From assembly GCA_040437565.1 (NCBI GenBank), contig JBDOQK010000061.1, positions 1 through 64,000 of the forward strand: a stretch of 64,000 bases of DNA, in the 5' to 3' direction. Below the pieces are notes generated by a model, which was given only the letters and a program-made list of their open reading frames with translations, was not told the DNA's origin and did no database searches. Position numbers and translations under genes: made by a program. Shown here one piece after another: positions 26,860 to 63,752 of the stretch. The stretch comes from Albugo candida (Eukaryota). Numbering within the stretch: position 1 is the first letter of the stretch; every line of letters starts with the position of its first letter.

Positions 26860-28400
26860 ATGTCAGCTGGCGATATATATACATCTAAAGCCACGCCTGA
26901 GTAATTGCTGGACACAATTTGCCGTCACATCCTATTGGGCGCCTATCCTGGACTCTAATACGCCTGTAATGTCCATGATTGATCAGACGCAAGAAACCTA
27001 TTACTGACAAGCTCGAAGAAAGTCGCTCTGTCTTCGAACAAATACCAGTGAGATTGTCTAGCACCCCTATTTTTTAGCATCAGCTTACCGCGCAGCAGTC
27101 GAGTAATTTGCAACGCAAAGTCAAACTGCACGAGGGGTATTATCCACGTAGCGAGCACTATGCTCNNNNNNNNNNNNNNNNNNNNNNNNNNNNNNNNNNN
27201 NNNNNNNNNNNNNNNNNNNNNNNNNNNNNNNNNNNNNNNNNNNNNNNNNNNNNNNNNNNNNNNNNCGGTCAAGTTTTTGGCATTGAATGTCTACATGAAG
27301 AAATAGGAATAGTTGAGTAATGTCAGCTGGCAATGCATATAGATCTAAAGCCACGCCTGAGTAATTGCCGGACACAATTTGCCGTCACATCCTATTGGGC
27401 GCCTATCCTGGACGCTAATACGCCTGTAATGTCCATGATTGATCAGACGCAAGAAACATATTACTGACAGGCTCGAAGAAAGTCGCTCTGTCTTCGAACA
27501 AATACCAGTGAGATTGTCTAGCACCCCTATTTTTTTTAGCATCAGCTTACCGCGCAGCAGTCGAGTAATTTGCAACGCAAAGTCAAACTGCACGAGGGGT
27601 ATTATCCACGTAGCGAGCACTATGCTCGTTGATATTGAGGCGATGACCTTCGAGATGATAAATTTGCGAGCTTGGTCAATTTTATTGCTACAGGTCGCAC
27701 CAATATATTGGGTGCTGTAAAATTTGACGATACAACCTTTTCCCATACTGCCACTGGTGTCGTAATGTTTGCGTCCTGGACTGCATGATTTTGCAATTAA
27801 GATTAATGATCCCATCAAAATTTTTTTTGCTGAAAGNNNNNNNNNNNNNNNNNNNNNNNNNNNNNNNNNNNNNNNNNNNNNNNNNNNNNNNNNNNNNNNN
27901 NNNNNNNNNNNNNNNNNNNNNNNNNNNNNNNNNNNNACTGCATGATTTTGCAATTAAGATTAATGATCCCATCAAAATTTTTTTTGCTGAAAGATATATT
28001 CCTATAATCCCACGTTGCTTTATGCTTGCAAGCAATATCTCAGGTGAGATAGAAAAAATCCTGCACTTTTTGGCTTCCAAAAAGCTTGTGAAGTATGCGA
28101 AGCCTTGCGTGAGCTCACTCCATTTAAGCACCCGCGACTGCAATTTGTACAGCTTTCTTGCATCCTGTATCAGATGACGTAAATATTCTAATTAATCGCT
28201 GGATACTCGTGTAGCAAAGGATGCGAGTCTCGAGCCAGAAAGAGCGCAATAAACACGGAAGCGCTCAACTACAAATAAAAATGTCGCGGAACTTTTCTCA
28301 GCATCGGGCTCCGACGAGATAAAAACAACAGCTATCGTCTATGGCCGGATTGATGCTCAACCGTTGTTTGTTGGAACAGTCTCGACATGAAGCTTATTTT
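26860..28400 (-). pseudogene. Pseudogene paralog of the DIX-like/ELMO gene at 61757-62953 (3' part assembled twice)
   Basis: Broken-frame matches: FQQTTVEHQS~FQQTLVEDKS; IRIFTSSDT~IRSFTSSDT; FDGIINLNCKIMQS~FDGVKNFTNKVMQS; NINEHSARY~IINEQSARY; WYLFEDRATFFELVSNRFLASDQSW~WCLFEDKVAFFELASIMFLAFDQSW; IGAQ*DVTANCVQQLLRRG~IGAHLDGTANCALELLRRG. Confidence 0.9.
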
Positions 28401-31679: not shown

Positions 31680-32570
31680 AGGTATATACGCCTGCAATCA
31701 CTTATCAATATGCGTATATCCAAGTGCAGGTTGCTGTATTTTCTAAGTAACAAATAAAGCCACTTATATTCTCAATCTGTCATCTGTATACTTGGAGCTC
31801 CACAAGTATTGTATTTGTAAACCCACCTCTTGTTAGCATTACTATATCAAAGAGCAGCTAAGTCACCTTGCACCCACACTTTGCTCACTGATAACGGTGA
31901 GTTCACTTGAAAGCATTGTACATGTAACAAGCCTTTTGACAAAGAAAACGGATAATCGATCTGGAAGTCGAGTCTACCAATCGTAGTCCCAGCCTGTAAT
32001 ATATAATCGCTTCGAGAAACTAATCTGCTCCGTATTATCAGGTCAAGTTGTTGTTGAAGGTTTAATTATGTAGTCTACAAGCTGGGTCGATTCCTCAGCT
32101 ATAGCCACTCCGACACGTCGTGCGTGTGACGAAAGACTTCATGATTTTGCATGTAGGATGCTTTACCCCCATCGAAAGCGTTTATTCCGGAAATATGATC
32201 GCTGTGAAATTTCGCAACACTTAATACCTTACACGCAACTTGTCTGGCGACATGAATCATAACCATTCAATTCTCTCTGTTAGAGTAGCTTCTTGCCAAG
32301 GATACAAAGTCGTGTGCGGGTTCATCGCGTTTGGAATCGACCAGATCGNNNNNNNNNNNNNNNNNNNNNNNNNNNNNNNNNNNNNNNNNNNNNNNNNNNN
32401 NNNNNNNNNNNNNNNNNNNNNNNNNNNNNNNNNNNNNNNNNNNNNNNNTTCCCCGGATTAACCGTAAAATCGGGTTGGAGGAAAAGGATGAGCAGCTATG
32501 TTTCCATGATTCGGATAGATCCCTTACCAATGCTTCATATGATAATATCGACAAAAACTTGTTTTCTACT
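31680..32570 (-). pseudogene. Second decayed DIX-like/ELMO paralog
   Basis: VFCRY..ALVRDLSESWKHSCSSF~VLCRY..TLVEDKSDSWKHNCSSF; EPAHD~DPAHD; TQLVDYIIKPSTTT*PDNTEQ~TQLVDLSIAASTSTHPNNMEH; RLDFQIDYPF~RLGFQTDDPF; LLFDIVML~LLCDILML. Confidence 0.85.
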
Positions 32571-53398: not shown

Positions 53399-53980
53399 TT
53401 ATTCAAATCGACCGCGGTGGGACATATAATCTTGAAAAGCCATAGAGCTCAGCAGCAAACACAATAGAGCTCCTTGACCATAAACTCGAGCCTGCATGAC
53501 TTGCTGTGAAACTTTGATTGCTGTGTTTGATCGTTGTGTCAAGTATATTCCACCAACGATAGGAACGCCAAGGACAGTAATTGTTCTATATGGATAATCG
53601 TAAATGTAGTTAGCCAGCCGATGATGCGGTAACAAATGATGCCCCGATGCCAGTTTCTCGCGAACATAATCGGGATCCATCGCTGCTAGGTACCGCTCGG
53701 GATTACGAGCACCGGCAACAATTCTTTGTTCTAAAGTGACGGCGAATGGCCCTAAAAAGGATGATATGATTAAAGCAGTCTTCCCACTCACACTCAACCT
53801 GTTGCGAAAAGTTGGCCAGTACTTATTAGCTGCGAACACGGCCGCTCCAGACGCCAACGAGAAAGAAAGTCCCGTCTTCAGCGCTGTCTTGTAAGCGTGC
53901 GCCGATATGATATCTCTCACAGTGGCGTCCTTGGTTCCTGAACTAGCATAATGATCGATCTGTTCGGCCTCGGAATCCAT
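53399..53980 (-). CDS. HIG1-domain mitochondrial membrane protein (Rcf2-like layout)
   Basis: N-terminal TM pair (FRNRLSVSGKTALI) and C-terminal SQQVMQARVYGQG HIG1 motif. Confidence 0.85.
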   Translation of the reverse strand: MDSEAEQIDHYASSGTKDATVRDIISAHAYKTALKTGLSFSLASGAAVFAANKYWPTFRNRLSVSGKTALIISSFLGPFAVTLEQRIVAGARNPERYLAAMDPDYVREKLASGHHLLPHHRLANYIYDYPYRTITVLGVPIVGGIYLTQRSNTAIKVSQQVMQARVYGQGALLCLLLSSMAFQDYMSHRGRFE

Positions 53981-54157: not shown

Positions 54158-55894
54158 TTAGGAATTTGACACAATTTCTTCATGCGCGGAAAATTGATCA
54201 CAGAGCGCTTGTAAATGGCTTTTGAGGCCATCTTGTGACTGGACGTTTTCCTGGTTCTCATCTGATTGCATCAAACCAAGTTGTTCATGAAGAATCATGT
54301 TCAAGGACTCAAATTCTAGCTGGCGTTCATGGAATTTGATTACTGTGTAGCCGTTCATTTTTGCTGAAAATACACAACAATGAGCCAACACGAAAGCAAG
54401 GCGCTGCAAGGTGAATAGGCCAGCGTCTAATCGACGTAGTAGCTGTTCCTCTTCATGATTGTTTTCTGTTTCTGCATCCTGTAGGTCGGTTTCTGTCTCC
54501 CCTTCTTCTTGCACGCGTTTGTAATACCTTGCAAACAAGTCGATCAAGCGATCCAATTTTTCATACTCTTTTTCCATCAGTTTTGAATGAAATCGAGCAA
54601 AACCATCCGCTCGTGCTTTTTCCGAAAGATACACACACATCGATGTTATGATGTTGATAGTGTACTCTTCTTGCTTCTCTTGAACCCTCTCCAATGTTCC
54701 CTTACTTACGTGACGCGATCTGTATCGACCTGTTTTGCCCATGAGAATTGAAAAAATATGTCTCAGACCGCCGATCTCTACCAAATGCTCGCAATTCCGA
54801 GGGCTTTCCATAAGTGAATGATCCAGCAGGCGAAGGGCTCCGGCATACATGAATGATGTTCGATCTTTGAGAAGCCGTAACAGAAGCTCAAGTCCTTCCA
54901 AATGACGAAATCGATTCTTTGCCTCTTGTGCCAGCAAAAGAGTGCAAAGAGCATTAAATATGTTCTCAAGAAATTCTTCTTCGTCTTCAGAGGAGGGATT
55001 CCGTTTGCGGTATAAAGCAATAATACGGAGTAATTTATCAAACCGGTCAGTTGTTTTCTTCTTAATCCCATCATCCATAAACGCTTCTTGAACGGGATTT
55101 GCTAATTGAAGCATTATTGACAGTACTTCGCTCGCGTACAGCTTATTCTGGGGGAATGCGACTGCACCTTCCCCACTCTTACGCTCCAACGCAATACTTT
55201 CTTTTTCGGCAATCAATCGGACAAGATGAGACAGAAATGTATTCTCACTGCAGATACTCACACATGAGTCAGGAACTAATTCAGCCATATTCTCAAAAAT
55301 CTGTAGAATATGGTAGATAACTTTTTGAGTCTCGTGTTCCTTGTCTTCTTGATCATCCTGTTCCATGTTTTCCTCATTGTTTATTTCAGCCACATCGACT
55401 TTTTTAAATCTCTCAAGAATCTGGACAAGGGACGTCAATACATTCTCCTCTACGAAAGCTTTTGCAATTGCAGCAATTGCCTCCAAATCGTCATCTTCCA
55501 TTTCTCCTAGGTCTTCAATGTCAGTCCAATCAGCGATGATGGCGATCACATCGTAATGGATGTCAATGTTTTCGTGTTGCAATAGACTTAGAAGTAGCGG
55601 TACAAAGTCGTCTTTGATCTCCAAACAGTGAGCAAATAAATTCGGAAAAGCAGCCACCCCTTTCCATTTGATTAATTCCTGATGCAATGCGACTTCCGAG
55701 TCCATAAATTTTGATGGCGTTTGAGCGTACTTGGTTCGTTCTATCGCATTTTTTTCAATCGTCTTTCGTAGTAATGAGAAGAGAGAATGAATCGATTTAG
55801 CGGTCATTGTGTCATCAATATATGTAGCATTTTCGACGCTAGAAACGAGCGAGTCAAAGCTTTGATCGGCCTTGAACCGCTTTGAGGCTTTCAT
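54158..55894 (-). CDS. CTNNBL1: Beta-catenin-like protein 1 (Prp19/CDC5L complex)
   Basis: [68 protein letters not shown]. Confidence 0.95.
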
Positions 55895-55930: not shown

Positions 55931-57067
55931 ATGGAGAGCTCGACAGCAGCTTCGATTCCAGTAACCATCCTTTCAGGCTTCTTGGGATCTGGAAAAACAA
56001 CACTTCTCAATTATATATTAACTGCTTCACATGGAAAGCGAATTGCGGTGATAGAAAACGAGTTTGGAGAGGAGATTGGCATTGAAAGTCTGGTGGCTAA
56101 AGATGGACTTGATGGTCAGTACTTGCCTGAATTTTTCGAGCTTGGAAACGGATGTATATGCTGCTCGGTTCGTGATGATCTTGTGAACACGCTCGAACGG
56201 TTGCTGGAAACGAAAAGTGGAAAGTTCGATTACATTATTGTGGAGACGACAGGAATGGCAAATCCCGGCAAAGTTGCGTCGGTCTTTTGGGTGGATGATG
56301 AGCTAGAAGGAAGAATGTATCTAGATGGAATCATCACTATCGTTGATGCTCACAACATTGGTAAGAATTTGGAAAGAGATTCCACTAGAAATGAAGCTGC
56401 ATCGCAGTTGGCGTATGCTGATCGGATACTTCTGAACAAGGAAGATCTTCTTGAAGGTGATAATGCTTCTAAAGACAATATTGAGTCTCTGATCCAGAGC
56501 ATCAACGGATTAGCGCCATTCACATGGACGAAAAAAGGAATCGTGGACTTGAGTTATATCCTTGAAATTCAAGCATTCTCAATGGATCGCGCTAATCAAG
56601 TAGAACTCATGTTGGAAGACGATTTAAACTGTTCGAAGAAAGGCACAAAAGATGACATGGAGTCTGCGATCAACTCAGATATTCACGCTAATTGCGACCA
56701 TATAACGAATTCAGAAAAGGATAAAGTAAGGGGTCAAATTCATTCTGGAAAAGTACGCACAATCTGTGTAACAATTCCCCAAAAAGTTTTTTCAATACAA
56801 AAGTTGGAGCGCTGGCTTGGTGAGTTGTTATGGGCCGATCAGAAAGAAGGATTATGCGATGCAAACTTTGAAATATTTCGAATTAAGGGCGTTGTGGCAA
56901 TTGAGAAGAGTCCGTACAAATACATTCTTCAAGGTGTACATGATTTATTTGAAATAACATCGTCAAAGGAAGTGTGGAGCGATCGCATTTCTCGGATCGT
57001 TTTTATCGGAACGGGCTTACAGAAAACAGATATTGAGTTGAGCTTGATACAGAGCTGTCTCGCTTGA
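55931..57067 (+). CDS. ZNG1: CobW/COG0523 G3E GTPase zinc metallochaperone (ZNG1/CBWD-like)
   Basis: [33 protein letters not shown] and CobW_C motifs (FRIKG, QGVH, RIVFIG). Confidence 0.95.
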
Positions 57068-58758: not shown

Positions 58759-59571
58759 CTAACGGATACGATTGACTCCACCGAACGCAGCCCGACGCCT
58801 GCGCTCTCGTTCGTTGTAAGCTTCTTGCTCATTTTCTTCCACTCTCTCTCCACCATCTATACCAGCCTGTCCCCGTTTCACACATTTTACTTTGGCATCA
58901 GGCTCATATCTTCCTCTCCAGCCCGTTGCGCTCGATTGTGCTTCCAATTGCTCGAGTGTCAATCCGTGTATTGGATCGTTCTGAAGCTCTTCTTCCTTCT
59001 TCTTTTGTTCCAATCGCTTTCTCCTTACCTGTTCAAACCATTCAATTCGTCTTGCTTCGATTTTCTTCATTTCTTTACGTTGTTTTTTTGCTTTTTTTGC
59101 CTTCTTTTTCCTCTCTTTTTTCTCTTTTCGTGTTTCTTTCGGAGCATCAAACACATTTTGACCTCGATTTATATCGAACTCATTCGCCAATTCTATTCCC
59201 TCATACGCATGTCCAGGCAATCCTCGCATTTTTCCTTCAACTTGTGCTTGCTCCAGTAAGTCTTCCTTCATCTGTGACTCTTTTGGCAGGCGATATTTCA
59301 GCACATGGTCAACGCGTAATAACCGATCCAAAAGCCGATATCCATTCAGATTGTCCACAGCCAAAACGGTACTTTTCTGATTTTCGTATTTCAGAAATGC
59401 AAATCCTTTGCTTTTGCCTGTTTTCGGGTCGCGAATGAGACTTATATCTTCAATTTCGCCAAATTGACTCATTACACAAATCACATCGCCTTCTGTGAGC
59501 TCGAAAGATAGTCCTCCGATGTACACCCACGCGCTGTCTTTATATTTCTGATGCCAGGAGCCTTCATAAGG
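58759..59571 (-). CDS. RBMX2: RBMX2/Snu17 RES-complex RRM protein, 5'-partial
   Basis: SWHQKYKDSAWVYIGGLSFELTEGDVICVMSQFGE...KSKGFAFLKYENQKSTVLAVDNLNG...RVDHV and a Lys-rich tail. Confidence 0.95.
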   Translation of the reverse strand, partial: PYEGSWHQKYKDSAWVYIGGLSFELTEGDVICVMSQFGEIEDISLIRDPKTGKSKGFAFLKYENQKSTVLAVDNLNGYRLLDRLLRVDHVLKYRLPKESQMKEDLLEQAQVEGKMRGLPGHAYEGIELANEFDINRGQNVFDAPKETRKEKKERKKKAKKAKKQRKEMKKIEARRIEWFEQVRRKRLEQKKKEEELQNDPIHGLTLEQLEAQSSATGWRGRYEPDAKVKCVKRGQAGIDGGERVEENEQEAYNERERRRRAAFGGVNRIR

Positions 59572-59671: not shown

Positions 59672-60822
59672 GGTGGAGTTGTGGTTGGTGGTGGATTACC
59701 CGGCGACTCGACTTCCATTTGCTGTTCGAGTGAGGTATTTTGTCCAGTATTTGCTTTTATTACAGGCGTTTCTGTTAATGGGAGTTGATCGTTTTCCGGA
59801 ATTGGAGCTGGTTCTACTGAAGTATCTTGAGATAGAATGGCAGGGACACCAGCAAAAGAAGCTTCAGGGTTGACCAGAGGTAAAGTAGGAGGTGCAGGAA
59901 CATCTGGATATGGAGTCGGAGGTACAGGACCACTCGTAGGCGGATGTACAGGACCACCTGTAGTAGGAGATACAGGACCACCTGTAGTAGGAGGTACAGG
60001 ACCACCTGTAGTAGGAGATACAGGACCACCTGTAGTAGGAGGTACAGGACCACCTGTAGTAGGAGGCACAGGGCTAACCGGAGCTGGAACTGGAGGAAGG
60101 GCTCGGTTTTGAGGATCTGATGGTGGCGGTGGAATGTTTGATGGTGGAGGTGTTTCTGGTGGTGGAATTGAAGTAAGAATTGATGGTGGCGGATGCGCGG
60201 AATCGGGGATACACTGCATCCAGACTATTTTCCCTTTTCCTCCATTTTGGCATCCTTGGCAATTCTCTTTGCAGTTTTCTGCATCATCTGCATGGTTTCT
60301 ATTGCAGATAGTAGAACAGTCCGTCTTGGGAACATCTGCTTTCGCTTCGCAGCTTGCCTGGACAGAACAAGATTTTGCTGCTTCCACAAGCTGACGGCTT
60401 GATGCACAGCCAATTTCTTTTGGTTCGAGTATATCGATNNNNNNNNNNNNNNNNNNNNNNNNNNNNNNNNNNNNNNNNNNNNNNNNNNNNNNNNNNNNNN
60501 NNNNNNNNNNNNNNNNNNNNNNNNNNNNNNNNNNNNNNGGTTTGGCTTCTAGCACGCATTTGGTGGCAATTTCGAAATAAGCGTCTCGAATTCTTTGGTA
60601 ATTCGGGATGTTTCGGAGTGCAAGTATACCGTCTCGCTCAAGCGCCAACAACATATTTTGAGGTGTTTCATCGTCCATCAAATGGCCGTAATCGTATGAT
60701 GGAACCTGAATGAAGGGAAGTGATCGTATCAGCTCATGATCTGTGCGAGGAACACCCATGCTCGAGTGGACCACATTGATCACCACCGATGTTGAGATGA
60801 GAATTTGGTGAAGGGATCGCAT
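59672..60822 (-). CDS. Secreted protein: signal peptide, globular N-domain, 8-Cys module and Pro/Thr mucin-like stalk (internal gap, 3'-partial)
   Basis: Hydrophobic leader; both sides of the 60439-60538 gap are colinear in the ungapped pseudogene at 29455-30838. Confidence 0.8.
59925..60070 (-). repeat. Coding 24-bp tandem repeat, about 6 x (TTGGPV[P/S]P)
   Basis: GGACCACCTGTAGTAGGAG(A/G)TACA units on the + strand. Confidence 0.95.
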
Positions 60823-61756: not shown

Positions 61757-62953
61757 ATGACAAAAGAAGTCCTCTGTCGATACTTTTTTCAGCAAACATT
61801 GGTAGAGGATAAATCCGACTCATGGAAACATAACTGCTCCTCTTTTCTTGTTTCCTCAGACCCAACATTGATGGAACTTCGGCAGAAATTCCCATTTGTG
61901 GGCGAGTATCATTTCCGCCTTCAGAGCACTATTTCCGGCTCAGAAGTCGCATACATTTGGCTTGATCTGATCGATCCTGCGCAGAAAATACGATCATTTA
62001 CGTCATCTGATACGATATACATCAAAGTGTTACAAATTGCAGCCGTGAGCGATCCCGCGCATGACTCTGATTACTTGACCAAAAGCTTTCTTGAAAGCCA
62101 GGAACTACACAATTTCTTTTTATCGCGCCCGACAAATTGCTCACAGGTTCCGAATGACGTGAGAAACAGTCACATTGATCACACATTTCCGGCAAAAGCG
62201 GTGTTTGATGGGGTTAAGAATTTTACAAACAAAGTAATGCAATCGTCAGTGACGCAAACACTACAAAAACAGTCGCAGAAAGTATGGGGAAAAGTTGTAT
62301 CGTCGAATTTCACAGTGCACAATGTGTCGGCGCGGCCTGCAGCTGCGGCTTTGACTCAGCTCGTAGATCTATCAATTGCAGCATCAACAAGCACTCACCC
62401 GAACAACATGGAGCACGTACGTTATCTAGAGCGATTATGGATTGCAGGCTCCGATCAACAACCCTTTCAACTGCGTGGTCCATCTTGGAGTAGACTTGGT
62501 TTCCAGACGGATGACCCATTTTGTGAAGCAAAATTCTTATTGCAGCTGCAATGTATGGTATACTTTCTTGAAGTTCATCACTCAAGCGCACTCAGCATCA
62601 TCAATGAGCAAAGTGCGCGCTACAAAAATGATCTTCCTTCGTATAGTTTGGCTTTCTTGGCCTTGAGGATTGCACAGCTCCTCTGTGACATACTGATGCT
62701 ACAAGACCAAGAGTTTGTGACTGCTGAACGACCTTATTGGTGCTTGTTTGAAGACAAAGTGGCTTTCTTTGAGCTTGCCAGTATAATGTTTCTTGCATTT
62801 GACCAATCATGGAGATCACAAGCGCATGAGTGTCCAGAAATAGGCGCCCATTTGGATGGTACGGCGAATTGCGCTTTAGAATTACTTCGACGTGGTCCTA
62901 AATCAGTTGCATCGCTTGTCGACATTGCCCATACTTTACAAATCTTGCAGTGA
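61757..62953 (+). CDS. ELMO/CED-12 domain protein with N-terminal DIX-like (ubiquitin-fold) domain
   Basis: ELMO: HVRYLERLW, WSRLGFQTDDP, YSLAFLALRIAQLL, FLAFDQSW. N-terminus: TLMELRQKFPFVGEYHFRL...YIWLDL.D...IYIKVLQI. Confidence 0.85.
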   Translation: MTKEVLCRYFFQQTLVEDKSDSWKHNCSSFLVSSDPTLMELRQKFPFVGEYHFRLQSTISGSEVAYIWLDLIDPAQKIRSFTSSDTIYIKVLQIAAVSDPAHDSDYLTKSFLESQELHNFFLSRPTNCSQVPNDVRNSHIDHTFPAKAVFDGVKNFTNKVMQSSVTQTLQKQSQKVWGKVVSSNFTVHNVSARPAAAALTQLVDLSIAASTSTHPNNMEHVRYLERLWIAGSDQQPFQLRGPSWSRLGFQTDDPFCEAKFLLQLQCMVYFLEVHHSSALSIINEQSARYKNDLPSYSLAFLALRIAQLLCDILMLQDQEFVTAERPYWCLFEDKVAFFELASIMFLAFDQSWRSQAHECPEIGAHLDGTANCALELLRRGPKSVASLVDIAHTLQILQ

Positions 62954-63224: not shown

Positions 63225-63752
63225 AAAATCACTTCGTGATTGTTCGAATTTTGATTCCATTGTTCGAGTGTCACTAAAGTACGAGTTATCACAGCCCGAG
63301 CTAATGATTGTTGAGGAGATGCCGAATTGCCAGACGGTAGATACTATCGATAGACTCCCTACAGCGGTAACCANNNNNNNNNNNNNNNNNNNNNNNNNNN
63401 NNNNNNNNNNNNNNNNNNNNNNNNNNNNNNNNNNNNNNNNNNNNNNNNNNNNNNNNNNNNNNNNNNNNNNNNNTGGTTACCGCTGTAGGGAGTCTATCGA
63501 TAGTATCTACCGTCTGGCAATTCGGCATCTCCTCAACAATCATTAGCTCGGGCTGTGATAACTCGTACTTTAGTGACACTCGAACAATGGAATCAAAATT
63601 CGAAAAATCACTTCGTGATTGTTCGAATTTTGATTCCATTGTTCGAGTGTCACTAAAGTACGAGTTATCACAGCCCGAGCTAATGATTGTTGAGGAGATG
63701 CCGAATTGCCAGACGGTAGATACTATCGATAGACTCCCTACAGCGGTAACCA
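63225..63752. repeat. ~150-bp segment present three times (direct, inverted, direct) around a gap
   Basis: 63225-63373 equals 63604-63752; 63474-63603 is the reverse complement of most of it. Confidence 0.9.

Follow-up and report, generated by a model that had tools for sequence, protein, structure and literature searches.

A DIX and ELMO domain fusion of the ARAMIS type in Albugo candida, probably a binding scaffold without GAP activity

The window analysed here is a stretch of 64,000 nucleotides of Albugo candida (contig JBDOQK010000061.1), and near its end lies a gene for a protein that joins a DIX-like domain at the N-terminus to a C-terminal ELMO domain. Its features and those of its neighbours are collected in Table 1. 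At the stop frequency of the window, 398 consecutive open codons would arise by chance with a probability of ~3e-9. The neighbours between 53399 and 59560 look like unrelated housekeeping genes, and the repeat-rich frame that follows them connects to the RRM frame only through an N gap. Downstream of the gene, at 63225-63752, a stretch of 149 bases is present three times around an N gap, one copy being inverted, and this is probably an assembly artefact.

Table 1. Features at and around the DIX and ELMO gene; residue numbers are those of the encoded protein.
Feature	Position in the window	Strand	Basis or remark
ARAMIS gene	61757-62953	+	single open frame, 398 aa (P0001)
DIX-like domain, residues 1-96	61757-62044	+	ubiquitin-like fold with a long loop from strand 1 to strand 2
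W68-x-D70 (with K90), putative tail residues of the DIX polymer interface	61958-61966	+	conservation and spacing
Variable linker, partly acidic, residues 97-142	62045-62182	+	least conserved part
Basic amphipathic helices, conserved, at residues 143-182; putative element for membrane binding	62183-62302	+	conservation, charge, hydrophobic moment
ELMO domain, residues 192-396	62330-62944	+	Pfam PF04727 and model
Degenerate ELMOD GAP region, residues 244-266	62486-62554	+	Lys259 (62531-62533) at the catalytic-Arg position; GxG deleted
ERP(F/Y)W loop with Arg325	62726-62740	+	only ELMO-domain Arg invariant in close orthologs
HIG1-domain protein	53399-53980	-	Pfam
Beta-catenin-like CTNNBL1	54158-55894	-	Pfam
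CobW-type GTPase	55931-57067	+	Pfam
RRM protein	~58759-59560	-	judged from translation
Open frame that has a hydrophobic start and tandem repeats rich in Pro/Thr/Gly	59680-60822	-	probably a separate gene

Contigs from four public sequencing runs have no joints across the gene. The codon of Lys259, the residue on which much of the interpretation turns, has the same letters throughout these runs, and a sequencing error at this position is therefore ruled out. Four coding differences were read by hand in other runs; three are silent and one leads to a residue that is common in orthologs. Two runs of one study are putatively RNA, and their contigs start 46-81 bases 5' of the ATG and contain no joints, which does not imply transcription. 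A protein search gave 34 matches among 4021 candidates, and all of the named ones are from oomycetes. Full-length orthologs share 38-74% identity with the A. candida protein, the nearest named relative being the ortholog of Albugo laibachii (73-74%).

Decayed copies of the gene, with stops and frameshifts, are present in the same window at 26878-28400 (-) and 31877-32565 (-). The first spans approximately residues 78-384 and adjoins a second C-terminal piece (301-384), and the other covers approximately residues 13-42 and 144-233; their DNA identity to the gene is patchy (67-82%). Because there are N gaps inside the decayed copies, the adjoining C-terminal piece may have been duplicated in assembly. 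Beyond the copies in the window, none were found in the A. candida genome. Broken copies nearby, together with Albugo's position as the most divergent sequence in the alignment of 31 close orthologs, could indicate that the intact gene is itself drifting towards a pseudogene and that the motif loss described below is simply decay. This explanation is largely refuted and hardly credible, since the open frame is unbroken and has a conserved counterpart in A. laibachii, the differences between runs are silent or lead to a common residue, and the catalytic arginine is missing from 30 of the 31 orthologs. On this conservation, a pseudogene was rejected.

The architecture has a name in the literature. 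Kostareli et al. (2025) described four DIX architectures in SAR organisms as the "Musketeer" proteins ATHOS, DARTAGNAN, PORTHOS and ARAMIS, in which ARAMIS is the fusion of DIX and ELMO and forms a third class of ELMO proteins (PMC12077222). File S1 of that paper contains 75 ARAMIS rows, all from stramenopiles, and row 75, assigned to Albugo candida, is identical by eye to the 398-aa protein; A. candida is also listed there with ATHOS, DARTAGNAN and PORTHOS. The protein studied here has a DIX-like domain at the N-terminus, a disordered linker, a C-terminal ELMO domain, an origin in a SAR organism and orthology to the published proteins, and it is almost certainly ARAMIS, a member of the Musketeer family. 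Its domain order is that of the published ARAMIS, with the difference that the linker is treated as disordered in the text of PMC12077222, whereas residues 143-182 form conserved basic helices here. The first-pass annotation regarded the fusion as a candidate for an undescribed function, and this does not stand: the fusion, the ARAMIS name, the idea of a role in polarity and apparently the Albugo protein itself are already published.

The loss of the GAP arginine in most ARAMIS members appears to have gone unremarked before. Term searches found no discussion of it in the main text and four supplements of PMC12077222, figures aside: 'arginine' and 'catalytic' are absent from the main text, where 'GAP' appears only in a reference, and the supplements contain neither 'arginine' nor any relevant 'GAP'. 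In literature searches, which left most subscription journals outside, PMC12077222 was the only work on ELMODs or ELMO domains in oomycetes among the best 15 of 103 matches, and no literature on Arf-linked pseudo-GAP ELMO domains was found. An ELMO domain without this arginine is not new in kind, since human ELMO1/2 also lack it.

The annotation read the first ~95 residues as DIX-like, and the predicted structure bears this out. Residues 1-96 match the Axin DIX domain with a Z score of 11.1 (rmsd 2.6 over 83 residues), and the top nine structural matches are all DIX domains, from Axin, Ccd1, Dvl1 and Dvl2 (Z 10.1-11.1, rmsd 2.2-2.6, 75-83 residues). The scores to SOSEKI and to the best non-DIX ubiquitin-like domain are 8.9 and 9.2, respectively. 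A Foldseek search of the model, as proposed earlier, placed DIX chains at ranks 1-6, with a best E value of 1.8e-3. The mean pLDDT of the full protein is 66.5, and ~67-93 per block over residues 1-100. Comparison with Pfam, also proposed earlier, was successful for one half of the protein only: ELMO_CED12 matches, but the DIX profile does not match the Albugo protein itself, while in the alignment of 31 orthologs it matches 19 (E values up to 1, best 4.2e-6). A family profile compared with solved structures matched no DIX chain. Relative to the DIX domains of Dishevelled, Axin, Ccd1/DIXIN and SOSEKI, ARAMIS shares the fold (Z 8.9-11.1) and the tail-type Trp, Asp and Lys, but has only 9-16% identity, a longer first loop and no conserved head His. 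This L1 loop is 16 residues long with a short helix, lying between strands 5-11 and 28-32, as read from the present model without superposition on those of PMC12077222.

DIX domains polymerise through head and tail faces, and in SOK4 the tail residues are W83, D85 and K103 and the head residues D33 and H34 (PMC7042713). In ARAMIS, W68 and D70 are invariant in all 60 aligned proteins of the wider family, and position 90 is K or R in 41 of them. We infer that W68, D70 and K90 are equivalent to the SOK4 tail residues, from their spacing and the ends of the aligned range and not from a residue-level superposition. A His before strand 2 is present by eye in the ATHOS and DARTAGNAN sequences of Albugo in File S1. 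For a head His of the SOK4 type, no conserved counterpart was found in the ARAMIS alignment. Head contacts in DIX polymers are partly backbone-mediated, and a changed head side chain need not block such contacts.

It is possible, though on balance doubtful, that the ARAMIS DIX domain has a tail face only and does not self-polymerise, but caps ATHOS or DARTAGNAN chains or pairs with them. This idea, which is compatible with the other readings discussed below, draws on the invariant tail-type residues, on the missing head His, on the enlarged L1 loops noted for ARAMIS and PORTHOS in PMC12077222, and on TgDDP, a Toxoplasma protein with DIX and DnaJ domains for which only monomers and dimers are reported (PMC13753751). 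Besides the backbone contacts, it is weakened by the six SAR DIX domains, of whichever Musketeer types, that were tested, all of which polymerise in vitro (PMC7042713). A complex prediction with two copies of the DIX domain and no alignment input scored 0.00, which is evidence neither way.

The linker that follows has a mean majority frequency of 0.43 in the close orthologs and 39% identity between the two Albugo proteins. The pLDDT is below 50 at residues 125-164 and 179-193. Residues 143-182 are different, with a mean majority frequency of 0.80. Their net charge is at least +3 in all 31 close orthologs and in 48 of the 60 wider family members, and their hydrophobic moment exceeds that of shuffled sequences (p<0.05) in 12/31 and 34/60, respectively. 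Judging from these properties, the helices would bind membrane. By eye, Albugo PORTHOS has a Lys-rich helix with a Trp right before its C-terminal domain, like ARAMIS, and a long L1 loop is present in both. A membrane-binding element common to PORTHOS and ARAMIS is possible.

The ELMO domain that the annotation named is well supported by both sequence and structure. Pfam ELMO_CED12 (PF04727) matches residues 209-357 with an E value of 7e-22. Folded alone, the domain has a pLDDT of 97, and its model matches ELMO2 (6ie1) with a Z score of 17.3 (rmsd 3.0 over 195 residues), the next match among 48,161 chains having a Z score of 7.2. A single-protein sequence search of solved structures gave weak matches to ELMO1/2 only. 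The GAP consensus of ELMODs is WX3G(F/W)QX3PXTD(F/L)RGXGX3LX2L (PMC8483735). Aligned in register, residues 244-260 match it at 5 of the 11 tested positions (W, G, F, Q and P), and the T, D, F/L and R positions as well as the two G are lost, a two-residue deletion accounting for the loss of GxG. The earlier observation that Arg is replaced by Lys and that TD and GxG are lost was thus correct: the catalytic Arg that is invariant in ELMOD GAPs is Lys259 in Albugo ARAMIS. Compared with ELMOD1-3 and the plant ELMODs, which are Arf/Arl GAPs, ARAMIS shares the W...GF-Q...P frame of the GAP region but lacks the catalytic Arg, TD and GxG, and it adds a DIX domain.

Between the two Albugo proteins, the GAP region is identical at 22 of 23 positions, against 76% elsewhere in the ELMO domain (uncorrected binomial p of 0.014, for one chosen window of 376); 13 of these 376 windows, from two other stretches, are equally conserved. 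In the close orthologs, the majority frequency of the GAP region is 0.80, compared with 0.72-0.75 for three other ELMO segments, while the ERPxW segment is more conserved still (0.92). By these values the degenerate GAP region is still constrained, which weakly supports a retained binding surface. An acidic residue (D or E) is found at the consensus Asp position in 59 of the 60 wider family members.

Most family members lack the arginine, but Lys is not their shared state. The annotation proposed an ortholog alignment at this position, and it confirms that Arg is absent in 30 of the 31 close orthologs; Gln, however, is found in 28 and Lys only in the two Albugo proteins, and Lys as the family state was therefore rejected. 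The one Arg belongs to a protein of Plasmopara halstedii (P0023), which is nested within Gln-bearing proteins, and since its GxG is still deleted, the Arg is probably a chance return. A wider search gave 245 proteins (150 listed), and 173 of the 182 stored ones were aligned after 9 duplicates or fragments were dropped; for a few rows rich in gaps, the residue assigned is uncertain. Among the 114 aligned proteins with a DIX-like N-terminus, the position holds Lys in 49, Gln in 29, Arg in 22 and another residue in 14, and a near-complete GAP motif is kept by nine. The 59 aligned proteins without a detectable DIX-like N-terminus, many of which are fragments, have Arg in 34, Lys in 14 and another residue or a gap in 11. 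One protein with both domains and an intact GAP motif, P0142, falls into a cluster with a record that bears the name Symbiodinium sp. KB8; as the ARAMIS rows of File S1 are all from stramenopiles, it represents an alveolate ARAMIS or else contamination. Among 10 Arg-keeping members whose taxonomy was looked up, this cluster alone received a name.

In File S1, inspected by eye, Arg is present in Ectocarpus and Nannochloropsis, Lys in Aphanomyces and an ochromonad, and Gln in Saprolegnia, Achlya, Thraustotheca, Phytophthora and Pythium. A FastTree phylogeny of the ELMO domain, calculated without ELMO1/2, places ARAMIS among ELMOD-type sequences. It contains a clade with the oomycete proteins (support 0.97), in which five members combine Arg with the two-residue deletion seen in Albugo, and apart from it another large clade (0.97) in which Lys prevails; two rows of the tree, L001_own and L007_own, are C-terminal part-domains whose placement is meaningless. 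As the brown-algal and Nannochloropsis members keep Arg, more than one loss of this residue is probable. The simplest informal reading of the sequences, with most rows lacking taxonomy, would be an ancestor that was active and from which Arg was lost several times.

The consequences of such a change are known from other ELMODs. Replacement of Arg by Lys abolishes GAP activity in mammalian ELMODs and the function of MCR and ELMOD_A in Arabidopsis (PMC8483735, PMC6724520), while mitochondrial fusion is still promoted by ELMOD2 R167K, which acts there as an effector (PMC6724520). The proposal that the protein is GAP-dead is therefore probably right: judged from its residues, Albugo ARAMIS probably has no GAP activity, and it would probably be a binding scaffold and not an enzyme.

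A GAP could also survive through a relocated or borrowed residue, such as Arg325, the Arg that Phytophthora and Pythium have three residues ahead of the canonical position, or one provided by a partner. Arg325 is invariant in the 31 close orthologs, Arg is found at position 256 in 25 and at position 250 in 20 of them, and 22 of the 114 family members keep the canonical Arg. Yet Albugo has Cys256 and Gln250, so these arginines are missing; Arg325 is Arg in just 17 of the 60 wider family members, and most Lys-bearing members lack it. Since, in addition, Lys at the site means a complete loss of activity in mammalian ELMODs (PMC8483735), a GAP of this kind is improbable, and sequence comparison made no substitute Arg evident in Albugo ARAMIS.

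A GAP-dead ELMO domain may still bind a GTPase, or it may have left GTPases altogether and offer a helical scaffold to different partners, like the domain of metazoan ELMO1/2, the partners of DOCK proteins. Human ELMO1/2, aligned to the family profile, have Thr at the Arg position, and the region proposed for ELMO in PMC11290852 likewise lacks Arg. ARAMIS has in common with these proteins an Arg-less ELMO domain and an N-terminal ubiquitin-like fold, but its N-terminus is of the DIX type and not of the Ras-binding type, and 398 aa leave no room for armadillo repeats or a PH domain, so that only the ELMO domain aligns. A scaffold without GTPases would also agree with the loss of 6 of the 11 tested consensus positions and the two-residue deletion, with the ERPxW loop rather than the GAP region being the most conserved ELMO segment, and with the absence of GTPase terms from the published ATHOS pulldown table (PMC12077222). 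Against it, the W...GF...P frame persists together with the acidic residue at the Asp position, and many lineages have settled on Lys, which is reported to stop catalysis yet spare effector function (PMC6724520). We consider this alternative somewhat unlikely, although GTPase binding, too, may have disappeared together with T, D, F and GxG, which is suggested by the ELMO1/2 domain that lacks Arg.

The preferred reading is that of a GAP-dead effector or adaptor. The DIX domain would dock ARAMIS onto assemblies of ATHOS, DARTAGNAN and PORTHOS, and the basic amphipathic helices would keep ARAMIS on a membrane. Its ELMO domain would descend from an active Arf/Arl GAP of the ELMOD type that lost its arginine finger, and the former GAP surface would now bind a partner, an Arf-family GTPase or some other, without accelerating hydrolysis. 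ARAMIS could then act in localised membrane traffic, at the trans-Golgi and clathrin coats. This whole chain is held tentatively; it may well be right, but falls a little short of an even chance.

The setting in membrane traffic is derived from three sources. TgDDP, of the DARTAGNAN type, is located at the trans-Golgi and co-purifies with clathrin, Hsp70 and an ATHOS-type protein (PMC13753751). A GAK analogy has been drawn for the Musketeers with kinase and J domains (PMC12077222), and Arf GAPs generally act in coat recruitment (PMC6724607). In both TgDDP and ARAMIS a SAR DIX domain is combined with an effector domain at the C-terminus, and an association with ATHOS-type protein is reported for TgDDP, which carries DnaJ where ARAMIS has ELMO and for which localisation and essentiality were tested. 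The clathrin link is borrowed, since Toxoplasma is an alveolate and the ARAMIS rows of File S1 are all stramenopile. On the ARAMIS side, four spectra of Phytophthora palmivora ARAMIS against none in the control were obtained in the ATHOS pulldown, a contact that its authors did not validate, having obtained no co-expressing strain (PMC12077222). The connection of ATHOS with ARAMIS rests on these four spectra, and the pulldown table, in which 'clathrin', 'GTPase' and 'ADP-ribosylation' are all absent, speaks against the clathrin and Arf setting.

The annotation suggested a role in cell polarity. A polarity or motility role for Musketeers is likewise proposed in PMC12077222, and the location of ATHOS at the ventral groove of zoospores, the sole oomycete localisation given there, fits a polarity reading equally well. 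The TgDDP data (PMC13753751), the best on the function of any Musketeer protein, nevertheless shift the balance, and localised membrane traffic seems the more likely role than polarity as such; a function in polarity or at the flagellar base would follow from it.

In a broader and unlikely version of the preferred reading, the Musketeers would be one coat-recycling machine assembled through DIX domains, with a NAK kinase, a J domain, a motif scaffold and an Arf module. ARAMIS would be the Arf module, a GAP in early stramenopiles that was repeatedly turned into a GAP-dead holder by a change of Arg to Lys or Gln, with a tail-only DIX domain capping the polymer. If true, evolution would have made the same Arg-to-Lys or Arg-to-Gln change that laboratories use to kill ELMODs, and nature would supply pairs, one active and one dead but alike in architecture, for studying how ELMO domains act on Arf GTPases, a mechanism that is poorly resolved. 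As the fusion is already published, what is left is of modest value. Should ARAMIS be a pseudo-GAP both in oomycetes and in numerous other stramenopiles, the Arg-keeping brown-algal and Nannochloropsis members are a natural comparison of GAP and effector function, and those who work on Musketeers in Phytophthora should not expect GAP activity from ARAMIS.

Loss of GAP activity in ARAMIS would not leave Albugo without such enzymes. The A. candida genome contains seven ELMO loci, and five of the six others keep Arg, so canonical GAPs are still available; no DIX match was found in any of these six. The remaining locus, L007 (G000:C1:336109-339357), is an ELMO gene whose GAP region is degenerate, with Glu in place of Arg, and which gave no DIX match. 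The Pfam DIX profile gave two weak matches in the genome, neither of which is a DIX domain on inspection; as the profile also missed the ARAMIS gene, it is silent on other Musketeers. A search of the same genome for the Arf family, the putative partners of the ELMO domain, gave 40 exon-wise matches.
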